Shown here piece after piece: positions 4,051 through 33,052 of a stretch of 64,000 bases of DNA. The DNA is from Candidatus Woesearchaeota archaeon (lineage in GTDB: Archaea > Nanobdellota > Nanobdellia > Woesearchaeales > UBA119). Positions within the stretch are counted from its first letter, which is position 1, and the number at the start of each line of letters is the position of its first letter. The stretch spans positions 7,574 through 71,573 of the forward strand of contig JASGME010000003.1 in assembly GCA_030156615.1 (NCBI GenBank), read 5' to 3'. Below the pieces are notes generated by a model. It ran no database searches. It saw only the letters and a list, made by a program, of their open reading frames with translations, and was not told where the DNA came from. A program made the position numbers and the translations under genes.

Positions 4051-7000
4051 TTGGAAATCGAAAAAGAATACCTGATTATTGCAGGAATCGTTGTTATTTT
4101 GCTTTTAATAGCTTTTACTATAAACTTGTCTATGGAAAATGCTATAACTGGCTTCTACACTTTGCAGGAATGTGAAGCCATGTGTACAGGAAACACTCAA
4201 CCATACATCTCTCCGAGTTTTCCAAGGACATATAACCTTCTTGAAGATGAAGAATATTTGATAGAGATCATCGGGATTGATGCCGAGGGAGATGATATTT
4301 ATTATACAACAGATGAATCAAAGGGAACATGGGATTCATTGTTCCTATATCCAAATGGAACAATGAATATTACGCCTACTAATGATGATGTTGGGAGGAA
4401 GAGCATCTTTATAATTCCTCTCGATATCTGCAGCGATCCGGATGAGTGTGCCCAGACTCCTGATTTAACCACTTCTGCAATTACATTTTACATAGAGAAT
4501 GTTAATGATCTTCCTTTTGTTGTGGAAGCAAATCCAGAAGCAGGTTCTGGTTTTACAGGTGCAGAAAATCATTCTCTTTCCTTCAATGTAACTATTGCTG
4601 ATGATGATTATAGCATTGCAGATGAATACTATAATGAATCTTTTAATTATTCTTTTATTTTGGACGGAGCAATCAATTATTCTGAAACTCTGGTTAAATC
4701 ATTAGAATTCAGCTGGACGTATGAACCTGGTTGGTATGATGCAGGAGAACATAATGTGACATTTTTGGTTTATGATTACGAAGGCGCAAATGCATCATAT
4801 GAATGGATTTTTTATGTAAATAATACGAATCGTATTCCTCTTCAGAATGCAACACTGCCCAATATAACTTGGGAAGAGGATACTAATTCAACACCGCTTC
4901 TTTTAAATTACTACTTCTATGATTTGGATTTAGATGACTTTTTGAATTATTCAGTAAATGTTTCCTCAGGGATTAATTACTCTGTTTATCAGGATGAAGG
5001 CATGAGTTACATTAAATTTATTCCATTAAAAGACTGGTTTGGCAATCAAACAGTTGTAATGAATGTTTCAGACGGCTATGATTTCATTCTCAGCAATCAA
5101 TTTATCCTGAATGTGACAAATGTTAATGATCCTCCAATAATAGAAGAAATTCCAGATTTGTCAACGGCATCTGGCTATCTTTTTGAATATCCGGTTAATG
5201 CCACAGATCCTGATAATGACGCAATTGAGTATGGTCTCTTTGGAAATCCTTCGTGGCTTTCAATTTCAGAAGATGGAATTATAAATGGAACTCCTCCTGT
5301 TGGGGAAGAAGGAACATATATATTCAATGTTAGAGCAATGGACCCTTATTCAGCCTATTCTCTTGAAGAAGTTAAGCTGAATGTATTCTATGATCAGCCT
5401 CCTGTATTTGATGATATTGAGCATATTAACACAACAGAAGGGAATCTAACGAGGATAAATGTTTCTGTCAGGGATCCTGACGGGGATTCTTTTGAAGTAA
5501 TCTCTGATTTTAATTATGCTTTATACAAGTTTAACGATACTTTGTATTATTACAATTTTACCCCGAAGCAAATTGATGTTGGGGAGCATGTAGTGAGGCT
5601 AAATGCTACAGATTCATGGGGCTTGAAATCAACATATTCTTTTAACCTTACAGTTCTTGATAAAAACTTTCCTCCGGAATTAGATGAAGTTGGAGATCAG
5701 GTAGCTAAGATAGGAAAGGCCTATTTTTTTGATATTAATGCTACTGATCCAGATGATGATCCTTTGTACTACGATATTAATCTTAGTTTTGTTTCTATAG
5801 ATCATAGCACAGGCATTATAACCTATTCAGGAAGTTCAGAACATGAAGGGACATATGTCGTTAATGTATCTGTAGAAGATCCTGCTGGAGAGGTAGATTA
5901 TGAACTTATAAACTTCACAGTAACATATAATCGTCCTCCTGACTTAGAGGAGCTTGGCTATTTTGAGATTGAAGAGGATGTTGAATGGATAAAACAGATT
6001 AAGGCAACTGATCCCGATAATGACGAGCTATCTTTTGAGGCAAATGCCAGCATTGGCCTTAACTCATCAACAGGATTAATAAATTATACTCCTCCTTTGC
6101 CCGGTCTTTTCCATTACAATATAACTGTTCATGATGAAGATATGGCTTTTGATTCTTCTTTGTTAATCCTTAATGTTACCCCTTTCAATGATCCTCCGTA
6201 TATTAACACTTCCAACTTAAACATTACAACTATGGAAGAAAACGAGACAATAATATATGTAGAATATTTTGATGAGGAAGGAGCAGAAATAATCCTTTAT
6301 GATAATACTACTGATTTTGACTTCATAAAAATAAACAACACTTTGGGCAAGATTAATTATACGCCAATGGAACAAGGGAATTATTCATATCTATTGATTG
6401 CTTCAGATGGAGATAAAAATGGAACTGCAGTTCTTAATGTTAGCGTTTTGCCTTATAATCATCCTCCTGAGTTATATTCATATTCTCCTTCATTATTTGT
6501 CCCTGCTGTTGAGAGAGATGTATTGAATTTCTCAGTAGTTGTTCATGATCCGGATGGGGATGAACTAACCTTTAGATGGAAGTTTGATGATGTAGAACTT
6601 GACAATAACAAAGAAAATCTTTCTTATACTCTTGGCTGGTATGATGCAGGAACTCATGAATTGAGATTGGAAATAACAGATGCATTCAATCAACCAGCAA
6701 ATTCAACTCCGCTGTCTTGGTACCTTGTTGTAGAGGATCTTAATCGCCCTCCGGTCTATGGCAAACGAGTTTTTGATAACTTCTCTTCAGGAACATTTGA
6801 TAATTGTGTTAATGGAAGTTTGAAGCTTCTTAATGATTCAGACGGATTGTATCCTTTATCTGGTACATATATTACTCCAAGGATAGATTTCTTTGATGAG
6901 GGCTTTATACATTTTGACAGGATTGAAGCTGCTGTAAATCTAACAAGCAAGACCAACATCTCATTTGAATATAAAAAATCATTGAACAATCCTCCGATTG

Positions 7001-18610: not shown

Positions 18611-19962
18611 TATGGATATGGCTTATTCTTATTTATGCTGCCGTCCTGAGATTTTCTTTTCTGGACTCTCAGCCCTTATGGATTGATGAACAGATTTCTG
18701 CTTCTGTTATGCAATCCATTCTTTCTTCAGGAAAGCCGGTTCTGCCTTCTGGAATCTTCTATGATCGCGCTTTGATTTTTCATTATGCATCTGCTCTTTT
18801 TTCCTTGCCTTTTTCTTTTCTTTATCTATATGCATTTCGAATTTTTAGTGTTGTCATAGGGATTGCTTTCGTCTATTTAATTTTCCTAATTGGCAGGGAG
18901 ATTTCAAACAAATACCTCCCATGGATAATGGCCCTGCTTTCTTGTTTCTTTTCAGTCTTTATCTTATATTCACAGCAATCTCGTTTCTATATCTTCCTTA
19001 TGTTTATGATTGCATTGGAAATTTTGTTTGTGCTTCGCAAAAAGAGGATTCCTGCAACTATTGCCTTTATCATTGCATTGGAAACGCATCCCCAAGCTTT
19101 ATTCTTTGTAATACCCTTGTTTTTCTCATGGCTTGAATGGCTATCCGAAAGACGGCTAAGGTATAAGAGACTTATTATCTCTCTGCTTGTTATTGCAATC
19201 TTGGTGATTGCTTCAATAAGCCTTGCTTCTATTATTGATTCCCTGACTTTTGATTATTTCTGGATCCATCTCTTGTGGGCATTCAACTTCCTGATGGATA
19301 ATATGCGCTATTCTTTATATTTCGCATTAGCAGGGATAGTATTTATATTCTTTAAGGATAGAAGGTTGTTTCTCTATCTTTATCTCCCTTCTCTAGTTAG
19401 TTTTTTCGGGGTTTTGTTGCTTGATAGATTTGAGACAAGGTATCTCTTTATCTTCTTCTTTCCATTGCTTCTATCTTTCGGCTATCTCTTTGACTGGCTA
19501 GCAAGGAAACTTGATGCCCGGATAATCTTGGTAGGCCTAGGACTTTTTGTATTCTTGTCCTCAAATGTTTTCGATCCTCTTGTTGCTCCCTATACGTTGT
19601 ATCCAAAGCCAGTGTACAACCTGGACAGGACAATGCCCAAGATGGATTATGAGAAGTTTTTCTCGGAGATGGAGTTAAAGAATATTACCTTGGTTTCTGG
19701 ATGGGCTCTTGGCCCTTATCTATATAATCATGAACCTGACTATTCAATTCCTTTCTCAATGACAGGCCATGCCTCTGATTCTACATTTCAGAATGGAAGT
19801 GAGAGATATATTGGTGTTCCTGCTTTTCCTCAGGAATTTGATGGAGAATATTATCTCTTGCTGGACAGATATGCTATGTCAAAGCTCCGCCAAAATCCTG
19901 TTGAAGAGAATTGTTCGTTAGAGTATGATTCCTCAGGGCTTATGCTTTTTTACTGCTCCTGA
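18607..19962 (+). CDS. GT-C fold (PMT-like) membrane glycosyltransferase
   Basis: LWIDE motif after first TM, SQQSRFY, many TM helices; ATGA coupling with epimerase. Confidence 0.75.
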   Translation: MIWIWLILIYAAVLRFSFLDSQPLWIDEQISASVMQSILSSGKPVLPSGIFYDRALIFHYASALFSLPFSFLYLYAFRIFSVVIGIAFVYLIFLIGREISNKYLPWIMALLSCFFSVFILYSQQSRFYIFLMFMIALEILFVLRKKRIPATIAFIIALETHPQALFFVIPLFFSWLEWLSERRLRYKRLIISLLVIAILVIASISLASIIDSLTFDYFWIHLLWAFNFLMDNMRYSLYFALAGIVFIFFKDRRLFLYLYLPSLVSFFGVLLLDRFETRYLFIFFFPLLLSFGYLFDWLARKLDARIILVGLGLFVFLSSNVFDPLVAPYTLYPKPVYNLDRTMPKMDYEKFFSEMELKNITLVSGWALGPYLYNHEPDYSIPFSMTGHASDSTFQNGSERYIGVPAFPQEFDGEYYLLLDRYAMSKLRQNPVEENCSLEYDSSGLMLFYCS

Positions 19963-20875
19963 TACTTTTTATTCTGTACCTTGGTTGTAACTTTGATGTA
20001 TTATGATATGTTCTTATAAGAATGTCCAATATGATGCCTGAAGAGAAGAGTATTATGCCTGTTATTATCAAGAAGAAACCAACCACGAAGAAACCTGAAT
20101 TAGTGAGATCTACGCTATGAAATATCTTGCTCCACAAAGAATAGCCTAATGCCAGTACTCCTAATAAAAAGCTTCCCAGGCCTAAAGCTCCAAAGAGATG
20201 CAGAGGTCTTTGAAGATACTTTTCTATAAACCAGATGTATATGAGATCAATAAATCCTTTTATGGATTTTTTCCAGTTGTATTTGCTCCTGCCAGATGTT
20301 CTAGCCCTGTGATTGACCTTTATCTCTGCTATCCTTGCTCCCCTTATCTTTAACAATGCTACTATATATCTGTGCATCTCTCCCCAAAGCTCAAGGTTTT
20401 CAACAAACTCCCTTCTATAAACCCTTAAGGTGCATCCAGAGTCATGTACCCCGTCTTTAATGAGTTTATTCCTCAATATCCTAGCAGACCTGCTTATGAA
20501 CCTCATCCATAAAGGATCCTTTCTCTTATATCGCCAACCTGCAACAACATCATAGCCTTGATTTAGCTTGTTTAATAATCTCGGGATATCTTTGGGGTCG
20601 TTTTGCAAATCCCCGTCCATGGTTATGATTATATTCCCCTTAGCATACCTGAAGCCAGCATCCAAGGCAACTGATTGACCATAATTCTTCTGCAGTTCTA
20701 TTAATGTAGCGTCTGTCTTGAGTATTTCTTCCTTTGTCCTGTCTTTAGAGCCATCATCTACGAAGATTATCTCATATTTCCCTTTTAAAGAATCCATAAC
20801 CTCTTTAATCTGCTCATACAAAGGCCTTATGTTTCTTTCCTCGTCAAAGACAGGGATTATAACTGAATACTTCAT
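19940..20875 (-). CDS. GT2 polyprenol/dolichol-phosphate glycosyltransferase (ArnC/DPM1-like)
   Basis: VIIPVFDEE, VDDGSKD, NYGQS, MDGDLQNDP, DSGC, GEMHRYI, two C-terminal TMs. Confidence 0.92.
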   Translation of the reverse strand: MKYSVIIPVFDEERNIRPLYEQIKEVMDSLKGKYEIIFVDDGSKDRTKEEILKTDATLIELQKNYGQSVALDAGFRYAKGNIIITMDGDLQNDPKDIPRLLNKLNQGYDVVAGWRYKRKDPLWMRFISRSARILRNKLIKDGVHDSGCTLRVYRREFVENLELWGEMHRYIVALLKIRGARIAEIKVNHRARTSGRSKYNWKKSIKGFIDLIYIWFIEKYLQRPLHLFGALGLGSFLLGVLALGYSLWSKIFHSVDLTNSGFFVVGFFLIITGIILFSSGIILDILIRTYHNTSKLQPRYRIKSIRSSKKA

Positions 20876-20929
20876 GCATCTCCCGCACTAAACGAATTAT
20901 TTAAATATTTCCACTTTTGAATATCGCTA

Positions 20930-22042
20930 ATGAGAATCTTAATGCTCAATTATGAGTTCCCGCCCCTTGGAGGGGGTGCCAGTCCTGTATCTTATGAGAT
21001 TGCTAAGGGATATGTTAGATTAGGTCATAGAGTAACGGTAGTAACAATGGGCTATAGAGGTTTGCCTAAACACGAGGTTAAGGATGGAATTGAGATTTAC
21101 AGGGTTCCTTGTTTAAGAAGTAAGAAAGAGATATGCCATCCTTGGGAACAATTAACCTATAACATATCTGCTAAACGATTCTTAAGGAAGCATCTGAAGC
21201 ACAATCATTATGACATCAACCACACACATTTTATAATTCCTACAGGAATAGTATCTTTATGGGTCAAGAAAAAGTTTGGAATCCCTTATATTATTACGAG
21301 CCATGGCAGTGATGTGCCCGGATATAATAAAGATAGGTTTAAATTCTTACACAAGTTCACAAAACCTATTTTAAATGTAGTTTGTAGAGATGCATTGATA
21401 GTTACTGTTCCATCCAATTCCTTAAGAAATTTAATTCTGAAAAATATTAATCCTGATTTAAAGAAGAAAACAATTGTTCTTCCAAATGGCTCTTCAGATT
21501 TTTATATGAAGGGAATAAAAAAAGAGAACATTATTGTTTCAAGTGGAAGGATGCATGTGGGTAAGGGTTTTCAATATATTATAAGAGCATTTAATGAATT
21601 AAATCCAGAAAGTTGGAAGTTGTTTCTCTTGGGAGACGGTCCTTATAAAAAAGAGTTAGTTAAGAACGCAAAAGGCAACCCCAACATAATTTTTACCGGA
21701 TGGATAAATAATAATACAAAAAGGTATAGGAGTATTCTTAATAAAGCAAAAATCTTTGTATTGTTGTCCGAGTTTGAAAGTCAAGGGATTGTTTATTTGG
21801 AAGCAATGAGTGCTGGATGTGCTATTCTGGCGTCAAACATTTCTGCATGTAAAGAAACAGTAAGCCCTAATGTTGGCTATTTAGTTAATAGAAAAAACAT
21901 CGCAGAGATTAAGAAGAAATTAAAAGAGTTGATGTATGATGATGTTAGATTAAATCAAATGATGAGCAAAGCAAGAAAAAGATATGAAGATAACTACAAA
22001 TGGGATAAAATCATTAAAAAGTATGAGGCTTTATTAAGATGA
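20930..22042 (+). CDS. GT4 family glycosyltransferase
   Basis: EFPPLGGGA, HTHF, SHGSD, FESQGIVYLEAMSAG (Ex7E). Confidence 0.92.
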   Translation: MRILMLNYEFPPLGGGASPVSYEIAKGYVRLGHRVTVVTMGYRGLPKHEVKDGIEIYRVPCLRSKKEICHPWEQLTYNISAKRFLRKHLKHNHYDINHTHFIIPTGIVSLWVKKKFGIPYIITSHGSDVPGYNKDRFKFLHKFTKPILNVVCRDALIVTVPSNSLRNLILKNINPDLKKKTIVLPNGSSDFYMKGIKKENIIVSSGRMHVGKGFQYIIRAFNELNPESWKLFLLGDGPYKKELVKNAKGNPNIIFTGWINNNTKRYRSILNKAKIFVLLSEFESQGIVYLEAMSAGCAILASNISACKETVSPNVGYLVNRKNIAEIKKKLKELMYDDVRLNQMMSKARKRYEDNYKWDKIIKKYEALLR

Positions 22043-22230
22043 AAATTTGTTTCATTGATCAAAAGTCTTATCCTTTATTTAATCCATCTGTGAAAAGTAT
22101 CTTTGAATGATCTAATGTTCAGCTAAGGCTTATAGCAAGATAAATAGTTAAGATTAACAAACAGAATTATGATATTAAAAGGTTTGAAATAGATAAGATT
22201 GCTAAGGCTTATATTGAGGTGTTGGAATGA
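22039..22230 (+). pseudogene. Internally deleted GT4 remnant with two in-frame stops
   Basis: MKICFIDQKSYPLFNPSVKSIFE*SNVQLRLIAR*...FEIDKIAKAYIEVLE*: GT4-like N-terminus joined to GT4-like C-terminus; ATGA overlaps at both ends. Confidence 0.6.
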
Positions 22231-22439
22231 AAAAATATCTTGAATATCCATTAAACGAAGGCATACAGAAGGAATTAGAAAAGTATTATGAAAACACAAA
22301 GTTAAAACAACATTCTGGTCAAGATAAAAAATCTAACCTGTTCTCCAGAAACATATGTCTGAAATACCTTTTCAAACCCATAGAACATAGCTTCCCATAC
22401 TGCCTTCTAATTGCTCCTTTCATTGAATGGCACTTTTAG
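22227..22439 (+). pseudogene. Short ORF, probably a truncated gene fragment
   Basis: 70 aa, ATGA-coupled to the GT4 remnant, no recognisable complete domain. Confidence 0.3.
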
Positions 22440-22446
22440 AAATTAT

Positions 22447-22962
22447 CTATTTAAATTTTCCTAAAGCTCGGTCCTTCTCAGAGACAATTGGATTATCTAC
22501 CATCCAATCTATTCCAAGCTTAGAATCATTCCAAACAATGCCTCCCTCACTTTCTTTATTGTAGAAATTGTCTGTTTTATATAGGACTATGGCTTCATCG
22601 GAAAGCACTGAAAAACCATGTGCAAAACCTCTGGGTATGAACAATTGCTTAAAATTATCCTCAGATAATATCTCCGAGACATATTTGCCATATGTTGGAG
22701 AATCTTTCCTTATGTCTACAGCGACATCTAGAATCTTTCCCCTTAAGGCTCTAACAAGCTTTGCCTGTTCATAAGGCGGTCTTTGGTAATGTAGCCCTCT
22801 AATTACATTCTTTACAGAATAAGATTGGTTATCCTGCACAAAATCAGGCAACTCTGGAAGCTTGCTTTTATTATAACTTTCAAAGAAATAACCTCGTTCA
22901 TCTCTATAAACGTCAGGGATTATGACCAACACATCATTTATTGATTTTCTTTCAATTTTCAT
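22447..22962 (-). CDS. rfbC: dTDP-4-dehydrorhamnose 3,5-epimerase
   Basis: DERGYFFESY, QDNQSYS, RGLHYQ, DVAVDIRKDSPTYG, GFAHGF, YKTDNFY. Confidence 0.96.
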   Translation of the reverse strand: MKIERKSINDVLVIIPDVYRDERGYFFESYNKSKLPELPDFVQDNQSYSVKNVIRGLHYQRPPYEQAKLVRALRGKILDVAVDIRKDSPTYGKYVSEILSEDNFKQLFIPRGFAHGFSVLSDEAIVLYKTDNFYNKESEGGIVWNDSKLGIDWMVDNPIVSEKDRALGKFK

Positions 22963-23665
22963 TTTTTTCCTCCTTTATCTTTTTCCAGGTACTTGCATTA
23001 TACAAACTCTCAAATGTTCCAGCATCGCTCCAAAAGCCTTTTACATAACTAAAGTCCATTCTACCGTCTCTGATATACTTATTATTTACATCTGTAATTT
23101 CCAATTCTCCTCTATGAGAAGGCTTAAGCGTGGAAATATAATCATAAACCTTGTTATCATAAAGATAAAGACCTGTTACTGCAAGGTTGGTTTTTGGTTT
23201 TGCAGGCTTTTCTTCTATTGAAACTATTTTTCCATTTTTAATCTCGGCAACACCAAACCTTTTGGGGGTTGAGACCTCTTTCAGGAATATTCTTGCTCCC
23301 CCTTTAAAATCGCTAATATCGAAGGAATCCTCATAGATATTATCTCCCAAGATTACTGCAATATTTTCTCTATCCGAAAAATCCTCTGTAAGGGATAATG
23401 CCTGGGCAATTCCTCCTGCTTCTTCCTGTATTGTATAATTGAGGGTTACTCCAAAGTTCTTGCCAGATCCAAGCAGTTCTAAGAAGTCTCCAGCATGTCC
23501 CCTTCCAGAAACAATCATGATCTCTTTTATTCCCATACTTATCAGTGTATGTAATGGATAGTATATCATTGGTTCATCATATATTGGCAAAAGGTGTTTA
23601 TTTGTAACCTTTGTTAGAGGATACAACCTAGACCCTGTTCCTCCTGCTAAAATTATTCCCTTCAT
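22952..23665 (-). CDS. rfbA: Glucose-1-phosphate thymidylyltransferase (short form)
   Basis: GIILAGGTGSRLYPLT, KHLLPIY, LGDNIY, EEKP, RGELEITD, WSDAGT. Confidence 0.95.
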   Translation of the reverse strand: MKGIILAGGTGSRLYPLTKVTNKHLLPIYDEPMIYYPLHTLISMGIKEIMIVSGRGHAGDFLELLGSGKNFGVTLNYTIQEEAGGIAQALSLTEDFSDRENIAVILGDNIYEDSFDISDFKGGARIFLKEVSTPKRFGVAEIKNGKIVSIEEKPAKPKTNLAVTGLYLYDNKVYDYISTLKPSHRGELEITDVNNKYIRDGRMDFSYVKGFWSDAGTFESLYNASTWKKIKEEKNEN

Positions 23666-23667
23666 TT

Positions 23668-24459
23668 TTACCTCCCAAGAAAATCATCTACTGCTTCTTT
23701 CCAATCCCTCAAATTACTTGTTCTGTTATTATTCAGGGCTGAATAGGCAGGCCTCTTCGCTTTTGTCTTGAATTCATAACTGTCACATGGCACGACATTA
23801 ACTTCTTTGTCTTTTAAGATATATTTTGCAAACTCATACCATGATGTAAGTCCTGAATTAGTAATATGAAAAATACCTTTCTCATCATATAGCTCCTTGG
23901 TTTTAATTGCCAGATCCTTCGTATATGTTGGATGGCCTACTTGATCTCTCACAACTTTGATTGTTTTCATCTTATTAGCTAAATCCAACATAGTTGTAAC
24001 GAAATTCCTTCCATGTTCCCCAAATAGCCAAGAGGTTCTAATAATAATATAATCCTCAAGTATTTCTTTGATGTAATCTTCTCCAATGGATTTAGACAGC
24101 CCATAGGTATTTAGGGGATTTTTCTCGTCATCTTCATCATAACCTTCTTCTTTGCTACCATCAAAAACATAATCAGTGCTATAATGAATTAGTTTGCAAC
24201 TGTTCTTAGCGCAAAAATCTGCAAGGTTCTTTACCCCTACATAATTTACTCTAAAGCATTTTTCTTTTTCGTCTTCAGCATCATCTACCTTGGTATAGGC
24301 ACTGGCATTAACTATGAGCTGAGGATTATATCTCTCAAGTTTAGACACATCTTCATATTTTGTCACATCTATCTCTGAATGACCAAACATATAATCAAAA
24401 TCAAAGATCCTTTTTAATTGATAAGCCAGCATCCCGTTTGCGCCAATAAGTATTTTCAT
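23668..24459 (-). CDS. rfbD: dTDP-4-dehydrorhamnose reductase
   Basis: GANGMLA, AYTKVDDAE, STDYVFDG, YGLSK, DQVGHPT, AKRPAYS. Confidence 0.94.
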   Translation of the reverse strand: MKILIGANGMLAYQLKRIFDFDYMFGHSEIDVTKYEDVSKLERYNPQLIVNASAYTKVDDAEDEKEKCFRVNYVGVKNLADFCAKNSCKLIHYSTDYVFDGSKEEGYDEDDEKNPLNTYGLSKSIGEDYIKEILEDYIIIRTSWLFGEHGRNFVTTMLDLANKMKTIKVVRDQVGHPTYTKDLAIKTKELYDEKGIFHITNSGLTSWYEFAKYILKDKEVNVVPCDSYEFKTKAKRPAYSALNNNRTSNLRDWKEAVDDFLGR

Positions 24460-25415
24460 TTGTTATCCCCTTGATGTTTCTTCTTATAGTATTCAATAGT
24501 TTCTTTTAATCCTGTTTCAAAGTCATATTCTGGTTCAAAGCCCAAAGACCTTAGCTTTGAATCATTAATCGCATATCTTAAATCATGGCCAGGCCTATCT
24601 TTTATAAACTCAATCCTGTTCTGCGATACTTTCATCAGTCTGACAATCATCCGTGCAATCTCTATGTTGCTTTTCTCGTTTCTTCCAGATATACAATATG
24701 TTTCTCCAATTTTGCCTTTATGAAGTATCAAATCAATTGCTCTACAATGGTCCTGAACATGAATCCAATCCCGTATATTCTCTCCTTTACCATATATTAA
24801 GATATTCTCGCCTTTAAGAATATTAGTTATAGATTTTGGAATCAGTTTCTCCTCGTGCTGCAAAGGTCCATAGTTGTTTCCGCAGTTGCTTATGGTTGCT
24901 TTTATTCCAAATGTGTTGATGTAAGACCTAACTAAATGATCACTTGCAGCCTTTGAGGCGGAATAAGGAGATTTAGGGTCATAACAAGATGTCTCATCAA
25001 AAGGCTTATCGAAAAAGCCAAGAGAACCGAAGACCTCATCAGTAGAAATGTGATGGAACCTAAGGTTATGCCTTTTGACGATATTGAGAATACTCATTGT
25101 TCCCAGCACATTGGTTTCCACAAAAACATTTGGGTTTTTGATAGAATTGTCTACATGACTTTCCGCTGCAAAATGTATTATTGTGCCAATCTTGTTCTTG
25201 TTTACAACATAATCCAGAAACTCAAAGTTATTAATATCTCCTTTGATGAAATGATACTCTTTTTTTCCTTCAAACTCTTTAAGATTGTCTGGATTTGCTG
25301 CGTATGTTACTTTATCATAATTAAAAATCTCTACATCTTTATATTTCCTAAACATATATTTTATAAAGTTTGATCCGATAAAACCAAGTCCCCCAGTAAC
25401 CAAAATTTTTTCCAT
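24456..25415 (-). CDS. rfbB: dTDP-glucose 4,6-dehydratase
   Basis: TGGLGFIGSNF, HFAAESHVDNSI, STDEVFG, YSASKAASD, DRPGHDLRYA. Confidence 0.96.
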   Translation of the reverse strand: MEKILVTGGLGFIGSNFIKYMFRKYKDVEIFNYDKVTYAANPDNLKEFEGKKEYHFIKGDINNFEFLDYVVNKNKIGTIIHFAAESHVDNSIKNPNVFVETNVLGTMSILNIVKRHNLRFHHISTDEVFGSLGFFDKPFDETSCYDPKSPYSASKAASDHLVRSYINTFGIKATISNCGNNYGPLQHEEKLIPKSITNILKGENILIYGKGENIRDWIHVQDHCRAIDLILHKGKIGETYCISGRNEKSNIEIARMIVRLMKVSQNRIEFIKDRPGHDLRYAINDSKLRSLGFEPEYDFETGLKETIEYYKKKHQGDNK

Positions 25416-25428
25416 TTTTTAAGAACGG

Positions 25429-25482
25429 ATAACAAATTATTTAAATATCTTGTTATTACTTGAGTAATATATGGGTATTACT
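25429..25482. promoter_or_regulatory. Divergent promoter with palindromic operator
   Basis: Central TTTAAA flanked by ATAACAA/TTGTTAT; TATTACT-TG-AGTAATA at 25454-25469; third TATTACT half-site at 25476-25482. Confidence 0.55.
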
Positions 25483-26247
25483 AACAAAGAAAGGATATCT
25501 TTGACTATTGATAAGAATCTCCTGAAACAGATTGATAATTCAAAAAAGGATTTTTCTAGATCTGGCTTTGTAGAGAAAATATTGAAAGAGAGATTTTCGG
25601 ATAAGAAAGTAGCTGTTATTCTTGCAGGGGGACCGCCCGAAGCATTATACACAAAGGACAAACTGTTAAAGCCATTATACCCTGTAAAGAAAAACAAGAC
25701 ATTGATTGAATTTCAAATAGAAAAGCTAAAAGAAGCAGGTTTTAATGAAATACTTTTCATATCTAAGAAGGAAATCATAGCTGAAATCTTCAAAAAAATA
25801 GGTGAAAAAGACCTTAAGTATATTGAAGAAAAAGATAGTCTGGGAACGGCTCAGACCCTTTCTCTGGCAAGAAATGAAATTGAAAGCGATTTTCTTTTTC
25901 TGCCTTGCGATCATTATTTTGAATTTGACATTAAAAAGTTGGAGAATGTGCACAAAAATAGTAATGCTACCACTACTTTAGCAGTTTATTATGGCAAAAA
26001 ACATGAATGGCATAAATCTTCTTTGATAGAAATTGAAGGAAATAAGATAATCAATTATGATGAAACTGCAAAATCCGATTCTAATCTGACATCGGTTTTT
26101 ATAGGTTTCTCCAAGCCAAAAATCTTTGAATATATTCCTTCCTCAAAAGTAGAATATAGCCTTCAGAAAGATGTTTTTCCTGTGTTAGCTAAGGAAAGAG
26201 AGCTGAATGCTTTCCTGTTTAATTCCGATTGGCTCAATTTAGAGTAG
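25471..26247 (+). CDS. Ribbon-helix-helix domain fused to a degenerate sugar-phosphate nucleotidyltransferase domain
   Basis: ERISLTIDKNLLKQID...SRSGFVEKIL (RHH) then VAVILAGG, K.L.PV, LGTA, FLFLPCD; the usual GxGTRL is replaced by GGPPEAL. Confidence 0.8.
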   Translation: MGITNKERISLTIDKNLLKQIDNSKKDFSRSGFVEKILKERFSDKKVAVILAGGPPEALYTKDKLLKPLYPVKKNKTLIEFQIEKLKEAGFNEILFISKKEIIAEIFKKIGEKDLKYIEEKDSLGTAQTLSLARNEIESDFLFLPCDHYFEFDIKKLENVHKNSNATTTLAVYYGKKHEWHKSSLIEIEGNKIINYDETAKSDSNLTSVFIGFSKPKIFEYIPSSKVEYSLQKDVFPVLAKERELNAFLFNSDWLNLE

Positions 26248-26451
26248 AATCTGATTTGTCCGAAAAATAGTAAAAGGCATATTAGTTTACATCCTAGCAA
26301 CAAAAATGGAGAATCAAAAATCTTTCCATAATAGGAGCAAAACCAAATTACTAAGTTAATTATCATTAGGATGATTTATTATTCCGGGCATACCAGATAA
26401 GAACGATAAAGATTTAAACATTGAAATTTGGTTGGTTTTACTAAAGAGAGA

Positions 26452-27126
26452 ATGATTTATTTAATTGAAAATAAGGAACACAGAAACATCCAATCTTCTT
26501 TGGAATATTTTTTAAAATTTAATATTCCAAAAAATGCAAAAATTCTCGATGTCGGATGCAATTGTGGGAGTTTAATTTATAATATTTATAGAAAAGGTTA
26601 CAAAAATGTTCAAGGAATAGATATAAACAAAGAAGCGATAAAAATAGGAAAAAGAGAATATAAGCTTCTAGAAAAAAAATTAAAAATATATGATGGTTAC
26701 AAAATTCCTTTCAAAAATGAATCTTTTGATGTTGTTTTAATGTTTGATGTTATTGAACATATACCAAGTGTTGAGAGATTTATTAAAGAAGAAGTTTACA
26801 GAATTCTCAGGAAGGGAGGGCTTTTTATTTTTCAGACACCGAACAAGCCAATGAATATTATATTCGTTTATATTGATAATAATTTCAATCCTTTTGTAAA
26901 GTGGTGGGAAGAACATTGTTCTTTACAAACTTATTGGAGTTTAAAAAAATTATTAATGAAATCCGGTTTTAAAGAGATTAAAATAGAAAAATATAACATT
27001 TTAACAGATTACAACAAAGAGAAAGTTAAAAAGGTAGCAGGAAGAGTTGGATTGGTTCTGCTTAATATTTCTTCTAAGCTTCCTATAAGGCTTTCTACGA
27101 ATTTATGGGGCTTTGCAAAAAAATGA
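26452..27126 (+). CDS. Class I SAM-dependent methyltransferase
   Basis: ILDVGCNCG, GIDIN, FDVVLMFDVIEH, RILRKGG, QTPN. Confidence 0.9.
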   Translation: MIYLIENKEHRNIQSSLEYFLKFNIPKNAKILDVGCNCGSLIYNIYRKGYKNVQGIDINKEAIKIGKREYKLLEKKLKIYDGYKIPFKNESFDVVLMFDVIEHIPSVERFIKEEVYRILRKGGLFIFQTPNKPMNIIFVYIDNNFNPFVKWWEEHCSLQTYWSLKKLLMKSGFKEIKIEKYNILTDYNKEKVKKVAGRVGLVLLNISSKLPIRLSTNLWGFAKK

Positions 27127-28115
27127 AAAAAGCAGCAATAATTATAGTTAATTGGAATGGAAAGAAATTTCTTAAAGATTGTCTTAATGCGGTTTATAAA
27201 CAAACTTACGAGAATTTTGAAGTTTATTTTGTAGATAATGGCTCTATTGATGGAAGTGCTGATTATGTCAAAAAGAATTTTCCAAAAGCAAAGGTCATTA
27301 AATTAAGCAAAAATACTGGATTTGCTAAGGGAAATAATGAAGGTATCAAAGAAGCATTTAAGGATAAAAAAGTTGAATATATCGTTTGCCTTAATAATGA
27401 TACAATTGTTGATAAAAATTGGTTAAAAGAATTAGTAAAAACTGCAGAAAAAGATGAAAAAATTGGTATGGTTTCAAGCAAAGCTTATTTTAAAGATGGG
27501 AAAACAATACAAAATGCAGGGTTGATTTATTCTCCATCACTTCACATTAATAAGAAGGGAGGAATTTCTTTAGGTTACGGGATGACCGATAAAGAAATGC
27601 CTGAACTCTCTAATGAAATTGAGATATTCTGCCCAGGCGGAGTTGCACCATTATATAAAAGGAAAGTCTTAGAATTTTTATATAAAAGGGATAAAGAGAT
27701 ATTTGATGAAGATTTTTTTGCTTATGCAGAGGATTTAGATTTGGGATTTAGGATTAGAAAAATCGGCTATATCTCTTTTTTGTCACCAAAAGCAAAGCTT
27801 ATTCATTTACATTCTAAAACAGGTGGAGTTGCTTCTCCTTTTAAAGCATATTATTCTGAGAGAAATACCATACTTACTGCAATAAAAAATTTACCTCTCT
27901 TTGATTTATTCTTATTTCCCTTTAGAAATTTTTTTGTGAAGGTTTCTTATTTGAAAAAAGAAAATAGTTCTGTTAAAAAATTAAGAGAGGATAAAAGTCT
28001 TAGTGGTATTTTTTGGATTTTGATAAAAGCACACTTTTCAGCACTATTTTTAACACCAAAAATGCTAATTAAAAGATGGAGGATTCAATATAATAGAAAC
28101 TTTAGAATTGAATAA
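27123..28115 (+). CDS. GT2 glycosyltransferase (rhamnosyltransferase-like)
   Basis: IIVNWNG, VDNGSIDGS, NTGFAKGNN, LNNDT, FFAYAEDLDLG. Confidence 0.9.
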   Translation: MKKAAIIIVNWNGKKFLKDCLNAVYKQTYENFEVYFVDNGSIDGSADYVKKNFPKAKVIKLSKNTGFAKGNNEGIKEAFKDKKVEYIVCLNNDTIVDKNWLKELVKTAEKDEKIGMVSSKAYFKDGKTIQNAGLIYSPSLHINKKGGISLGYGMTDKEMPELSNEIEIFCPGGVAPLYKRKVLEFLYKRDKEIFDEDFFAYAEDLDLGFRIRKIGYISFLSPKAKLIHLHSKTGGVASPFKAYYSERNTILTAIKNLPLFDLFLFPFRNFFVKVSYLKKENSSVKKLREDKSLSGIFWILIKAHFSALFLTPKMLIKRWRIQYNRNFRIE

Positions 28116-28147
28116 ACTTAGTGACTGTATAACTGAGATGATACAAA

Positions 28148-29089
28148 ATGAATAAATATTTTAAGTTTGCAATCTCTCTCTTTGCAACCGGAATAATCGT
28201 TTACCTTCTATTTAGAAAAATAGATATTTCAACTTTAGTGAAATTATCAAGAGAGGGATTTGTTGCTTTAGGATTTTCAACTTTTCTTTTTTTTTTGATT
28301 AAAATGGTAAATACTTTTAGGTATTCGAAATTGTACAATCTGAAAGCAGGGATAAAACTTTTTTCACTGTTATCTTATTCCAATCTAATGTTAAATATTT
28401 TTCCATTCCGGACAGGAGAAATTTCATATATTCGTGGATTTAAAAAATACTTCAATATCAGATACTCTGAAGGACTAAACAAATTAGTTCTCTTGAGATT
28501 TATAGATTATCTTGTAATTTATATTATTTTCTTAATTTCTTCTATTTGCGTTTATAATAATGTTGAAGAAAGAATTTTAGAATTGGTCTCTCTTTTTTTT
28601 GTGATTTCTTTAGTGTTCTTTTTTGGGTTCATTTATTTTATCACTTCTAAAAAAGTTTCATTTAATTTTAAGAGTAAAAAAATAAATAACATATTAAAAA
28701 CAATAAGAATTGGGATCAAAGATATCAGAAAAATACCTATGAATGTTGGATATGTGATAGTCTCTCTGTCTTTTTTATATTGGATCCTTAGATTAATCTC
28801 GGGGTATGTTGTCTTAAGATTTTTAGGACTAAATATTCCTTTTTCTTATCTAACTTTTGTGTCTCTTCTTCTCTTATTAATTGGGATTCTACCAATTAGA
28901 TCCTTTCTTGGATTTGGGATATTTGAAGGAGGATGGGCATATTTTTTAATTCCTTTAGGTTATCAATACGATCTAATTCTGCCTTTAGTTTTACAATATC
29001 ATTTAATATTATTAATACCTTCAATAATTTTCGGAGCTTTTGGATTTTTTATTCTGAGAATTATATCTAAATTATCTGATAAACCTTAA
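28148..29089 (+). CDS. LPG-synthase TM / flippase-like membrane protein (AglD2/MprF-TM type)
   Basis: Multiple TMs, NIFPFRTGEISY, RFIDY, GFGIFEGG. Confidence 0.75.
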   Translation: MNKYFKFAISLFATGIIVYLLFRKIDISTLVKLSREGFVALGFSTFLFFLIKMVNTFRYSKLYNLKAGIKLFSLLSYSNLMLNIFPFRTGEISYIRGFKKYFNIRYSEGLNKLVLLRFIDYLVIYIIFLISSICVYNNVEERILELVSLFFVISLVFFFGFIYFITSKKVSFNFKSKKINNILKTIRIGIKDIRKIPMNVGYVIVSLSFLYWILRLISGYVVLRFLGLNIPFSYLTFVSLLLLLIGILPIRSFLGFGIFEGGWAYFLIPLGYQYDLILPLVLQYHLILLIPSIIFGAFGFFILRIISKLSDKP

Positions 29090-31559
29090 CCCTCCCAAAT
29101 TTTTTTTCAATCTTGTAGTTCTCCTCTAAAAATTCCTTCCACTTGTTTTCTTCAAATATCCTTAAAGTAGATCTCCATGCTCCAAATATTATTTTTGGTT
29201 TGTCTTCATTTAATTTATCTAATATCTCTGATTTTGTTAAAGAAATGTCGTAGTTCTTATACTTTTTATTCAAACCTTCATAAAAATATATATCTTTTTC
29301 CTCTCGCAAATGAAAAGGGGAGTGAAATGATATTACATTTTTATTGTCCAACGAGGCTAAAATTGCAGTATCTAAGGAAAAGACTGATTCATTGTCAAAA
29401 TTTTTTTTGAGATACTTTTCCACTTCATCAAACTCCTCGATAGTATAAAAAGTGTAATCAGTTGGAAGGTTAATATTAATGTAAAAAGAAAAAGAAACAC
29501 TTAAAAACAAAATGAAAGAAAATAACCTTTTGCTTTTAAAATTAGTAAAATAAATTAAAATGAGTATTAAAGGGAAGAATATTAAAATTGTTTGAAAACG
29601 GGTTGGCATTAGATAACCTCCTAAAGTAGATACAATAAGCCAAAAATCAAAAACAAGAATTAATCCCGATTTTTTAGAGTCTTTATACATTCGATCTTTC
29701 TTTGAATAGATGCCATAATATATTAAGAAAATAGTATGAATAATTACTAAAGAACAAGCAAGATAGTGGTAAAAAGAAGGAACGAAGGTGAAAAAACCTC
29801 GACTCCCAAAGCCAAAAATTAAGACGGATATATTAATTGTTGCATAAACCATAGAAAGTATCTTTCTGTATTTTGTTAAAACATATAAATTTAAAAATTG
29901 CATTGAAAAAAGTATAACTGGAAAACTTAAAATAATCCCTCCATAAAAAGAAGAAAAAAAAATTTCTGGTTCTGTTTTTAGTTCATAAATGAAAGTTAAT
30001 AAAATAAGAATATTTGTTAGAATAATTAATCTTTCTTTTTCGAATATTTTTTTTGGAGTTATTTTTGATAAAATAAGACATATACTTAAAAATATTAGAG
30101 ACAATATTCCTAAATTAATAAAAACGTCATTTAATACAATCTTATAAATATGAAAAAAATCTGTTTTAATGGAATAATAAATCCAATATGTTAGGATTGG
30201 AATTAGAAGTGATATAAAAAACATTAAACTTTCATTGAATGTTTTTTTCCACTTTTCTTTATTTTTAAAAATGATCATTAAAGGAATGATTACCAAAAAT
30301 ATTTCTTGTCCTTTGTAGCAGAGTATTGCTAAACCTGTTAAAAAACCTATTAAAAAGATAAAAAGCGAAGAATTTTCTTTCAAATAATTTTTATATGCTA
30401 AATATAAAATTAAAACTGAAAATAGATTTCCTAATTGATAGAAGATCCCTTGAAAAAGGTCCAATGTAGCATTAAAAGAAAGACTAACAACAGAAATTAA
30501 TAAAATTGTTATGTTTATCTTTTTATGATTAGAAATTTCTTTTAAGAAAAGGTACCATAAGATAAAAATTAATACGTGGATTAAAAAAACAAACCATCTT
30601 AAGTTTATTATGCTAATCTCAAATATTTTAAACCAAGGAATTAAAAAAAGTAAGCTCCCACTCTCCCTAGACCAAAAATCTAGAAAGAGTGTTTTTCCCT
30701 CAAAAAGTAGTTTAGTAGTATATAAAAAATTTCCTTCGTCTGTTCCAATTCCAGTATGGTAAATTTTGTAAATTTGAATTATCATAAATAGAACAAATAC
30801 CCCGAAGAGACCAAGCGAATATCCCCAGCCCTCTTTATACATCCATTTAACAAAACTATAAGGTAATCTAGCAAACCAAATAAAGGGAGCTGCTAAGGCT
30901 CTTAAAATAGAAACAAAATATCTTTTTTCTTTCCAATTTTTGGTTATGCCGTAATCAAAATTAAACCATGCAAGCTTTGGGAACTTCCTGTCAAACTCTT
31001 TTGCTCGCTTTTGCTCTGCTTTTTCTTCATCTTCTTTTTCTTCTTCAATTTCATCAATAACATCTCTGTTGTAATAAAAAACAAAAACACCCAAGAGAAT
31101 TGTTATTATGCTTAATCCTGTCATCTTTGAAGAGAAGAAATCAAAGAAAGAGCCTAAACTTATCAAAACAAGCATTGCCAAGAACATGTATTTATATACA
31201 TCCTCTTTGAGAAAGAGATCCTTCTTCTTATTAAAGTGTTCAAGAAGAAGCTTTATTCCTCCTAAGATACATGTAGCAATAAGAAACGCAATAACCTTAA
31301 AATCCAGCCAAAAGATATTAACAAAAGAAAAGCCCAAGAAAATTAAGAAAGCAAGATTAACGACCTTCTGAATATTTCTAAAGATACGCCATGGAACAAA
31401 AGAAGCAATAAGCAAAATAAATGCAGCAAGGAGGAAAGGCCATACCCTGTCTTCCAAGCCAACGAAAATAAAAGGACTCTTAACTAAGGCAAAAATCTCT
31501 AGTCCCAATAGAACCAAGAAAACAACAAAAAACACCGATCTATACCTTTTAAGACCCAT
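29067..31559 (-). CDS. Large polytopic GT-C-type glycosyltransferase with N-terminal membrane extension
   Basis: 830 aa; DEG motif after TM (GTDEGNFLY), YKGQE, many TMs; N-terminal module ending KWMYKEGWGY. Confidence 0.7.
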   Translation of the reverse strand: MGLKRYRSVFFVVFLVLLGLEIFALVKSPFIFVGLEDRVWPFLLAAFILLIASFVPWRIFRNIQKVVNLAFLIFLGFSFVNIFWLDFKVIAFLIATCILGGIKLLLEHFNKKKDLFLKEDVYKYMFLAMLVLISLGSFFDFFSSKMTGLSIITILLGVFVFYYNRDVIDEIEEEKEDEEKAEQKRAKEFDRKFPKLAWFNFDYGITKNWKEKRYFVSILRALAAPFIWFARLPYSFVKWMYKEGWGYSLGLFGVFVLFMIIQIYKIYHTGIGTDEGNFLYTTKLLFEGKTLFLDFWSRESGSLLFLIPWFKIFEISIINLRWFVFLIHVLIFILWYLFLKEISNHKKINITILLISVVSLSFNATLDLFQGIFYQLGNLFSVLILYLAYKNYLKENSSLFIFLIGFLTGLAILCYKGQEIFLVIIPLMIIFKNKEKWKKTFNESLMFFISLLIPILTYWIYYSIKTDFFHIYKIVLNDVFINLGILSLIFLSICLILSKITPKKIFEKERLIILTNILILLTFIYELKTEPEIFFSSFYGGIILSFPVILFSMQFLNLYVLTKYRKILSMVYATINISVLIFGFGSRGFFTFVPSFYHYLACSLVIIHTIFLIYYGIYSKKDRMYKDSKKSGLILVFDFWLIVSTLGGYLMPTRFQTILIFFPLILILIYFTNFKSKRLFSFILFLSVSFSFYININLPTDYTFYTIEEFDEVEKYLKKNFDNESVFSLDTAILASLDNKNVISFHSPFHLREEKDIYFYEGLNKKYKNYDISLTKSEILDKLNEDKPKIIFGAWRSTLRIFEENKWKEFLEENYKIEKKFGRVKVYQII

Positions 31560-31771: not shown

Positions 31772-33052
31772 CTCCAAAAGCAGAAACTTCCACAATGGAG
31801 CAACTCTAATCTTGTATCCTTTATATTTCAAAGAATCCTCCTGATCATATGTTAGAATCATTCCTTCTTTAATTTTCAATTCACTCATGGCTTCAACCAA
31901 GCCATCCATCTCCCTTTTCTTATTCTTTTCATTCAGATCGTATGTAACCTGAACTGCTGAAGTCAGCTTCCTGTTCTTTTGAAGTATGAAATCACATTCT
32001 TTAGCATGCTTAAAGTAAAAAACATCAAAGCCTTTTCTTTTGAACTCCTGCATTGCTAATGATTCCAAAAGCTTCCCCTTGTTCTTTGTTAATGTAGTTG
32101 AGAGCATGGTATGGAATATATTATCGCTGAGATATACTTTCTTAGGATTCTGAATCCTGACTCTGCCTGAATAGGAAAATTTCTCGGTTGCAAACACAAA
32201 GAATGCCTCTTCCAAGTATTTCAGATATTGGGAAATGGTCTTCTTGCTTACTTTAATGCCCTTGCCCCTTAAACTCTTTTCAAAGGAGCTTATTGAAAAA
32301 ATATCTGAGTTTATATCTATAAGATAAGACATTAAAAGCTCAATAATCTCTGTATTCTTAATCCGATGCCTTTCTACTACATCCTTATAATAAGTAGTAT
32401 CAAAGTAAGAGTTAGCAAGTTCTTTCTTCTCTATCTCGCTATTTTTCTTAATAATCTCAGGATATCCACCATAAAGCATATATTCATCAAACAATCGCAT
32501 CAACTTTCCCTTGTTAGCAGTATATTCTGTAGTCTTCTTATACTCAAATCCCCTATATCTTAAGAACTCTTTGAAAGAGAAATTAAGCAAAAGAATGCTT
32601 CTATACCTCCCTCTCAATTCGGTAGCTATCTCTTTTGACATCAGCTTGGAAGAAGAACCAGAGATAACAACATAGTATTTCTTTAGATTATTCAATCTTC
32701 TGACAAACCTGCTCCATTTGTCTATCTCTTGAATTTCATCAAAAAAGAGGTATTTAACATCATTATCGCTCAATTCTTTATGCGCAGTAAACATATCATC
32801 AAGCTCATCATCGCTAATTCCAGCAAGTCTATTATCCTCAAAATCAATAAAGAGAATCTCATCTTTTTCATTAGTTTCAAGCAACTGCTTTATTTTGTTG
32901 AACATGAGATATGTCTTTCCGGCCCTTCTTGGCCCCATTATGGCTAAAATGCTATCTTTATCTATCCTGAATTCTATATCTCTTTCAATCATCTCAGGCA
33001 AATCTCTCTCAAGCCATTCGCTAATTATCTTCTTAAATACTTCTCTTTTCAT
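31760..33052 (-). CDS. AAA+ ATPase (AAA_14 plus DUF4143 type)
   Basis: GPRRAGKT, FFDEIQ, ISGSSS, ELRGR, YMLYGGYPE, KKVYLSD, LLES, ECDF, QVTY. Confidence 0.92.
   Translation of the reverse strand: MKREVFKKIISEWLERDLPEMIERDIEFRIDKDSILAIMGPRRAGKTYLMFNKIKQLLETNEKDEILFIDFEDNRLAGISDDELDDMFTAHKELSDNDVKYLFFDEIQEIDKWSRFVRRLNNLKKYYVVISGSSSKLMSKEIATELRGRYRSILLLNFSFKEFLRYRGFEYKKTTEYTANKGKLMRLFDEYMLYGGYPEIIKKNSEIEKKELANSYFDTTYYKDVVERHRIKNTEIIELLMSYLIDINSDIFSISSFEKSLRGKGIKVSKKTISQYLKYLEEAFFVFATEKFSYSGRVRIQNPKKVYLSDNIFHTMLSTTLTKNKGKLLESLAMQEFKRKGFDVFYFKHAKECDFILQKNRKLTSAVQVTYDLNEKNKKREMDGLVEAMSELKIKEGMILTYDQEDSLKYKGYKIRVAPLWKFLLLEMLH

Follow-up and report, generated by a model that had tools for sequence, protein, structure and literature searches.

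The window analysed here is a 64,000-nt stretch of DNA from a Candidatus Woesearchaeota archaeon (UBA119; assembly GCA_030156615.1, contig JASGME010000003.1, positions 7,574–71,573 of the forward strand), whose genome is 861 kb with 34% GC. The genes rmlC-A-D-B lie on the minus strand (22447–25415) and, divergent from them on the plus strand, an open reading frame (ORF) encodes a ribbon-helix-helix (RHH) domain joined to a sugar nucleotidyltransferase (NT) fold. We refer to this ORF as the regulator, after its predicted role. The rmlB start codon ends at 25415 and the regulator ATG begins at 25471, which leaves a spacer of 55 bp (25416–25470). The locus comprises the following features.

25471–26247, plus strand: regulator gene, 258 amino acids plus stop (ORF list, Pfam, 75 homologues, AlphaFold2 model)
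25471–25608, plus strand: RHH domain, residues 1–46, with the predicted recognition strand K6-E-R8-I-S10-L-T12 and then helices 15–24 and 30–42
25609–26244, plus strand: sugar-1-phosphate NT-fold domain, residues 47–258, a predicted non-catalytic sensor (Foldseek, profile search against the PDB, census of catalytic columns)
25627–25647, plus strand: GGPPEAL (residues 53–59) in place of the GxGTRL phosphate loop, Ala58 occupying the position of the catalytic Arg (alignment with the window RmlA, GGTGSRL, and 99 members)
26236–26238, plus strand: Asn256 at the second Mg-binding Asp site, WxDxG having become WLNLE (column census, 99 members)
25438–25447, no strand assigned: palindromic TATA box TATTTAAATA, common to both divergent genes (position relative to both ATGs)
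25453–25459, no strand assigned: candidate operator box 1, TTATTAC
25464–25470, no strand assigned: candidate operator box 2, GTAATAT, 11 bp after box 1 and touching the ATG
25475–25481, no strand assigned: candidate operator box 3, GTATTAC, 11 bp after box 2 and within codons 2–4 (G-I-T)
24456–25415, minus strand: rmlB, dTDP-glucose 4,6-dehydratase, first gene of the divergent operon (Pfam GDP_Man_Dehyd, 9.5e-83)
23668–24459, minus strand: rmlD, dTDP-4-dehydrorhamnose reductase (Pfam RmlD_sub_bind, 2e-82)
22952–23665, minus strand: rmlA, canonical glucose-1-phosphate thymidylyltransferase (Pfam NTP_transferase, 2e-57)
22447–22962, minus strand: rmlC, dTDP-4-dehydrorhamnose 3,5-epimerase (Pfam dTDP_sugar_isom, 1.4e-67)

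Domain architecture and loss of catalytic residues

By sequence comparison the N-terminal domain is an RHH domain, closest to that of NikR, and the assignment, already proposed in an initial annotation of this DNA, is secure at the level of the family. A profile built from 20 family N-termini and searched against the PDB matched the RHH domains of two NikR proteins (E. coli, 5.4e-7; P. horikoshii, 5e-5), an RHH antitoxin (8e-4) and CopG (0.037), while 14 of the 20 individually match Pfam RHH_1 (best 2.3e-8). In the AlphaFold2 monomer model (mean predicted local distance difference test 90.6, predicted template modelling score 0.84) an extended N-terminal segment precedes helices 15–24 and 30–42, which are followed by the NT fold. 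The strand-helix-helix layout of ~45 residues is present, and the KxR-I-S-L-T pattern, with its alternation of polar and hydrophobic residues, is conserved; alignment to NikR (MQRVTITLD) places R8, S10 and T12 on the outward face of the strand. Dimerisation through a beta-ribbon and sequence-specific binding to short repeats are predicted indirectly, from the phased and co-varying repeats described below.

The remainder of the protein matches Pfam NTP_transferase (PF00483) over residues 48–254 with an E-value of 3e-16, above the gathering score; NCBIfam matches score far under every equivalog cut-off. The best Foldseek matches are GDP-mannose pyrophosphorylases and RmlA (E 1e-13 to 1e-16), and in a profile search against PDB sequences GMPPB, VTC1 and the Leishmania GDP-mannose pyrophosphorylase are nearest (~1e-28), with RmlA next (1e-16 to 1e-22). 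Both sequence peculiarities singled out by the initial annotation, GGPPEAL and the terminal DWLNLE, are present. The RmlA encoded in the window is by alignment catalytically complete (GGTGSRL, K23, D108, EKP, WSDAGT).

A census of catalytic columns in 99 aligned family members reveals that the altered motif is not peculiar to this protein. The GxGTR Arg column reads N24 K20 G12 R10 A9 D8, and the column of the second Mg-binding Asp, equivalent to D219 of VTC1, reads N79 H15 K3 D2; no member (0/99) has both residues. For reference, the Mg-binding aspartates of VTC1 are D111 and D219 (PMC9168903). The EKP lysine is retained in 45/99 members, the column matching Lys196 of the VTC1 Glu195-Lys196 pair is E44 K20 D15, and the catalytic-Lys column is R83 K9. 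Kept across the family are the first Mg-binding Asp (D147, invariant), the GG loop, the LGTA motif, E120 and the hexose-contacting E198, and a family-specific motif, W-x-N-[VI]-H, is conserved as well. As judged from these alignments the loss of catalytic residues is a family-wide trait and not local decay. Because residues of the pocket are conserved while catalytic ones are lost, the pattern has the signature of a binding pocket under selection without catalysis, and we predict that the NT domain is a pseudo-enzyme.

The base-reading position suggests what the pocket may bind. Where S. enterica RmlA reads thymine with Q83, all 99 members have an acidic residue (E93 D6), and in VTC1 an acidic residue at the same position hydrogen-bonds guanine N1 (PMC9168903). 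A Q83D variant of RmlA has been crystallised with dGTP (PDB 3PKQ) and is among the Foldseek matches. The acidic residue throughout the family hints, from this one position, at a guanine nucleotide as ligand, for example GDP-mannose or GTP, and the residue pattern points to a guanine nucleotide over dTDP-rhamnose.

Conservation of so much of the active site also fits a bifunctional protein, enzyme and repressor at once, comparable to BirA, PutA or NadR: the NT domain would continue to produce a nucleotide-sugar through a modified mechanism, and enzyme occupancy would be linked to transcription by the RHH domain. Such a protein would explain the invariant D147, the Arg or Lys at the catalytic-Lys position, the conserved hexose-binding E198 and GG loop, and an NT fold that is complete and confidently modelled. 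We consider it unlikely, since the GxGTR Arg is variable (N/K/G/R/A/D), the second Mg-binding Asp is Asn or His in 94/99 members, the EKP Lys survives in just 45, and the full catalytic set is found in 0/99. An extra enzyme would moreover be unneeded because adjacent operons encode canonical nucleotidyltransferases, not only here but also in the ugd-type operons beside other members.

Somewhat less likely again is a role mainly at the protein level, in which the protein would be a non-catalytic subunit that binds and tunes a neighbouring active nucleotidyltransferase, as GMPPA does for GMPPB, and the RHH domain would set only its own level. The GMPPB/GMPPA/VTC1 group is indeed nearest in fold and profile searches, and the paralogue GMPPA, itself non-catalytic, regulates GMPPB and has GDP-mannose as its ligand (PMC11228364, PMC9168903), a precedent for an inactive nucleotidyltransferase acting as sensor (PMC11228364). 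The position of the operator, on promoters common to sugar operons, argues for transcriptional control of those operons. A subunit role would be compatible with the reading we prefer, namely that the NT domain is the sensor of a transcriptional regulator.

The shared promoter and its phased candidate operator boxes

The initial annotation had described a 55-bp divergent spacer with a common TTTAAA and the motifs TATTACT and AGTAATA plus a third copy, and every one of these elements is in place. TTTAAA (25440–25445) lies inside the perfect 10-bp palindrome TATTTAAATA and is positioned at −31 with respect to the ATG of the regulator and at −30 with respect to that of rmlB. Across the genome, the distribution of TATA-like hexamers has a sharp maximum between −31 and −27 relative to start codons, so mRNAs of the source organism are probably mostly leaderless. 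As TTTAAA is ~30 nt from both ATGs, its position identifies one symmetric TATA box as the predicted promoter element of both the regulator and rmlB. The same symmetric TATA is seen at three related loci (L003, L004 and L039), that of L003 within an 18-bp palindrome.

TATTACT occurs at 25454–60, AGTAATA at 25463–69 and a second TATTACT at 25476–82, inside codons 2–4; TATTACT has 20 copies in the 64 kb (both strands), three of them within 29 bp at the regulator start. The initial annotation took the site for a palindrome with a spare half-site. The repeats are real and are conserved across phyla, but the site is better read as three pseudo-palindromic 7-mers with their first bases at 25453, 25464 and 25475 and a strict 11-bp period. 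The series begins 6 bp past the TATA box, and its boxes are centred near −15, −4 and +8 as counted from the regulator start; seen from rmlB, box 1 abuts the TFB-recognition element (BRE) side of the TATA box. In archaeal promoters, positions across the start region are a repressing placement. No other chain of at least three boxes at 9–13 bp spacing exists in the whole 861-kb genome, and none arose in 20 third-order Markov simulations (0/20).

Conservation of the boxes was followed in 22 loci at species level, drawn from four or more DPANN lineages (Woese-, Aenigm-, Parv- and Micrarchaeota, Burarchaeum). Box density between −80 and +15 of the regulator gene is 33/kb, compared to 1.09/kb in the remainder of the loci, and neighbouring boxes are spaced by 10 or 11 bp in 45 of 47 cases. 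Among 60 non-redundant sites the TAWTA core is invariant (60/60), with a flanking G in 37/60 and a flanking C in 46/60, giving the consensus GTAWTAC. The central W occurs freely in either orientation, which would follow from an RHH dimer of two-fold symmetry reading each box as a pseudo-palindrome. The number of boxes is three in Woesearchaeota and four, at 11-10-11 spacing, in Micrarchaeota, Burarchaeum and part of the Aenigm- and Parvarchaeota; several four-box loci have a first box that overlaps the TATA box. In L001 and L004, too, box 3 falls on codons that read S-I-T or G-I-T. Between the window and L001, a close relative with an rmlB 98% identical, substitutions in the spacer fall between the boxes and not inside them.

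L001 comes from the GTDB representative of the nearest relative, within Woesearchaeota UBA119. An apparent gap in its homologue of the regulator is not an insertion: it is a run of N inside the gene (6344–6614). The downstream neighbour at L001 is a UDP-glucose/N-acetylmannosamine dehydrogenase-like gene, where the window has a methyltransferase.

It is highly improbable that the repeats arose by chance or simply reflect promoter structure in an AT-rich spacer, and that the N-terminal 46 residues do not bind DNA. In favour of this reading one may cite the 34% GC of the genome, the weak Pfam RHH score of the window protein, and the finding that 16-nt palindromes with up to three mismatches are not enriched in the window (10 observed, 8.6 expected). 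Against this stand the 30-fold enrichment and 10–11-bp phasing of the boxes in loci of related species, the uniqueness of the chain in the genome, the co-variation of box type with the recognition strand (see below) and the significant family-level RHH assignment; a chance origin of the repeats is effectively excluded. A toxin–antitoxin pair of RHH antitoxin and MNT/HEPN module was rejected outright, the fold being a GT-A/Rossmann-like sugar nucleotidyltransferase (PF00483) and not the Pol-beta type (PF01909/PF18765), with no HEPN partner.

A search of the 861-kb genome for further operator sites yielded only two-box chains, nine observed (two of them at the regulator locus) against ~5 expected, and the candidate regulon sites, including C3:28212 and C29:57088, were not convincing. 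With no convincing further sites in the genome, the regulator looks local.

Family distribution, gene linkage and operator type

A word-seeded search returned 75 homologues, nearly all covering 98–100% of the query including the N-terminus, and their database entries carry no source names other than Woesearchaeota, Micrarchaeota and Burarchaeum. When 1.84 billion representatives (50% identity) were searched exhaustively with a profile, 412 scored E ≤ 1e-30; the best 150 of these match the profile from position 1–2, and essentially all are 240–290 amino acids long. In a scan of one genome per prokaryotic species there were 32 true members, all DPANN, and the lineages with members are Woese-, Nano-, Aenigm-, Parv- and Micrarchaeota, Burarchaeum and AR15. 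The fusion, whose conservation the initial annotation had proposed to check in DPANN and Candidate Phyla Radiation (CPR) genomes, is conserved in DPANN, but the one-genome-per-species scan found no bacterial member, CPR included. Its sole bacterial match (L033, Nealsonbacteria) has the NT domain only and is not a family member. Regulator proteins from metagenome-assembled genomes labelled 'Methanosarcinales' group among Woesearchaeota sequences in the tree.

In the source genome itself no second family member was found, only a small stand-alone RHH protein of ~80 amino acids (METIQIRLNQGLLRLIDSLVDKGIYSNRSEVIRDAV...) outside the window (C3, ~32566–32805, minus strand), with a NikR/CopG-like N-terminus and unrelated to the sugar locus. 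Two longer proteins, P0044 and P0046 (413–419 amino acids), are longer at the N-terminus by ~140 residues, and P0044 has additional matches to Pfam families of RHH type (PF19891, PF12441, PF07878); the added stretch may reflect duplication of the DNA-binding domain or a gene start called too far upstream.

The initial annotation had also proposed a check of the linkage to rml, which extends to most but not all relatives: rml genes adjoin the regulator in 17 of 21 related loci sharing the box type of the window, whereas in the other 4/21 and in a sister clade the neighbours are sugar-nucleotide genes such as ugd. The Micrarchaeota regulator is the first gene of a co-directional regulator-rmlD-rmlA cluster; with the boxes between the TATA box and the ATG of such a cluster, the sugar genes would be repressed directly.

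The sister clade (L021–L032) differs in recognition strand and operator alike. Its strand reads K-x-K-[IVL]-S-I-T, compared to KxR-[IV]S[LI]S in the GTAWTAC clade, and GTAWTAC boxes are essentially missing, with one stray box in each of 2 of 11 loci. Its loci have instead the repeats ATCTTACC, ATCCTACT and ATCCGAT at 11 and 10 bp, which are flanked by two divergent TATA boxes and usually face a UDP-glucose 6-dehydrogenase (ugd) operon. On the maximum-likelihood protein tree, operator type is a single change (support 93/95; 100% of bootstrap trees), and in the genome CAYLOA01 both classes are represented, by a single paralogue each (L006 and L030). A third variant, P0050, has a different RHH subtype: P0050 and P0047 have Pfam DUF7557 / RHH_10 on the same NT domain, which suggests that the DNA-binding domain has been swapped. 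At the locus of this variant, L039 (4958–4997), a further and different symmetric repeat, TTTTACATA-N22-TATGTAAAA, flanks TATTTAAATA and is divergent from a ugd-NT-SDR-epimerase operon (SDR, short-chain dehydrogenase/reductase). One locus of the ugd type, L025, has a 400-residue hypothetical ORF between ugd and the regulator promoter (4698–5900) that is absent from the syntenic L027 and may be a mobile insertion.

Within the window the regulator is part of a larger glycan-synthesis island (19940–31559). Beside the regulator and rml genes, the Pfam-checked ORFs are a methyltransferase at 26428 and a family 2 glycosyltransferase at 27105. The ORFs at 19940, 20930, 28148 and 29067–31559 (830 amino acids) appear by eye to be two glycosyltransferases and two hydrophobic, probably multi-pass membrane proteins.

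Several members carry the database annotations 'NDP-sugar pyrophosphorylase', 'mannose-1-phosphate guanylyltransferase' or 'AglF'. These enzyme annotations are probably wrong and inflate the predicted sugar metabolism of the DPANN genomes concerned.

Proposed mechanism and comparison with known systems

We regard it as probable that the protein is a one-component regulator in the style of NikR, in which the RHH domain reads the phased boxes, the NT-fold domain senses a nucleotide or nucleotide-sugar, and the outcome is autoregulation together with control of the sugar operon. The reading as a whole is built on sequence comparison and one predicted monomer structure. Comparison establishes the identity of the domains, the disappearance of catalytic residues across the family, the conserved, phased boxes with their position relative to the TATA box and the ATG, and the operon linkage; from these we infer DNA binding, the sign of regulation, and the binding and identity of a ligand.

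The N-terminal RHH domain would dimerise, each dimer reading one pseudo-palindromic GTAWTAC box, and the 11-bp spacing would place the three boxes on one face of the DNA. Since the boxes start 6 bp past the TATA box and span the regulator's presumed leaderless transcription start, bound protein would block the archaeal pre-initiation complex at its own promoter, resulting in autorepression. Box 1 lies against the BRE side of the common TATA box, so occupancy would also affect recruitment of transcription factor B, and the divergent rmlBDAC would be controlled too, with repression the more likely outcome. The C-terminal fold, having lost catalytic residues and kept those that bind nucleotide and hexose, would act as sensor and set DNA affinity by the level of the nucleotide or nucleotide-sugar; it probably also serves as a module for oligomerisation or higher-order assembly.

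Several observations weigh against this mechanism. First, the N-terminus of the window protein taken by itself matches RHH weakly (E 0.02–0.16). Second, some catalysis, residual or altered, would be compatible with the invariant D147 and with Arg or Lys in the catalytic-Lys column. Third, the window protein is atypical of its family, with a truncated C-terminus and ETAK for ExPK. Fourth, the acidic base-reading residue does not fit the simplest feedback by dTDP-rhamnose as end product. Lastly, the boxes of the sister clade lie upstream of both TATA boxes, and a single 'repressor' sign may not fit the whole family.

DPANN archaea, with their tiny genomes and their reliance on hosts for nucleotides, are uncultivated, and we know of hardly any specific DPANN transcription factor with a proposed signal, operator and target. 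The family presents a complete candidate unit of this kind: an operator of phased 7-bp boxes, a single symmetric TATA box at the heart of a leaderless promoter for both directions, and few candidate ligands. A broader proposal, which we hold more tentatively and as somewhat short of probable, is that of a DPANN-wide transcription factor family with a dead nucleotidyltransferase as sensor of a nucleotide or nucleotide-sugar, separated into three or more mutually insulated specificity classes that differ in strand, operator and target (rml, ugd), and coupling glycan precursors to scavenged nucleotides. If true, it would be a natural case of paralogous regulators insulated through co-evolution of recognition strand and operator, it would tie the synthesis of surface-glycan precursors to scavenged nucleotide supply in host-dependent archaea, and it would give GMPPA and eIF2B, pseudo-enzyme sensors of eukaryotes, a prokaryotic counterpart that binds DNA.

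The initial annotation knew of no characterised example, and our non-exhaustive literature search likewise found no published description of a fusion of RHH and sugar nucleotidyltransferase; a paper on archaeal 'dark matter' mentions MNT/HEPN modules only. RHH regulators with sensors and inactive nucleotidyltransferase sensors are both known, and their combination appears undescribed. The joining of RHH to an enzyme or sensor has precedents in kind in PutA, NikR and MetJ.

NikR is the closest in RHH sequence and shares the order of N-terminal RHH, short linker and C-terminal domain for ligand binding and oligomerisation. Its strand is R-x-T-x-T, compared to R-x-S-x-S/T in the regulator family, and its half-site GTATGA (PMC7055735) resembles GTATTAC. 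NikR differs in having an ACT-like metal-binding tetramerisation domain as sensor where the regulator family has the NT fold, and two half-sites 16 bp apart where the family has three or four boxes at 10–11 bp. Arc, Mnt, CopG and omega are small stand-alone RHH proteins and, unlike the regulator, have no sensor domain; their tandem dimers bind short repeats cooperatively, with an Arc-like centre spacing of about one helical turn.

On the side of the sensor, GMPPA and eIF2B gamma/epsilon have the same NT fold and are the best profile and fold matches, GMPPA sharing an impaired catalytic motif with the regulator family. In contrast to that family, these eukaryotic proteins act by protein–protein allostery, lack a DNA-binding domain and have a C-terminal beta-helix domain, whereas the regulator ends at residue 258, directly past the NT domain, in a family whose members have 250–285 amino acids. 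Active PF00483 enzymes such as RmlA and GMPP share the fold, the GG loop, LGTA, the first Mg-binding Asp and the hexose-binding Glu; the regulator family differs from them in lacking the pair of GxGTR Arg and second Mg-binding Asp, in lacking the EKP Lys in about half of its members and in the added N-terminal RHH domain. PutA, BirA, NadR and PurR of B. subtilis are repressors with a metabolic-enzyme fold as effector sensor, PutA also having an RHH domain. Their folds are different ones (proline dehydrogenase, biotin ligase, NMN adenylyltransferase and phosphoribosyltransferase, respectively), all four are bacterial, and the enzyme domains of PutA, BirA and NadR are active, that of PurR being the exception.

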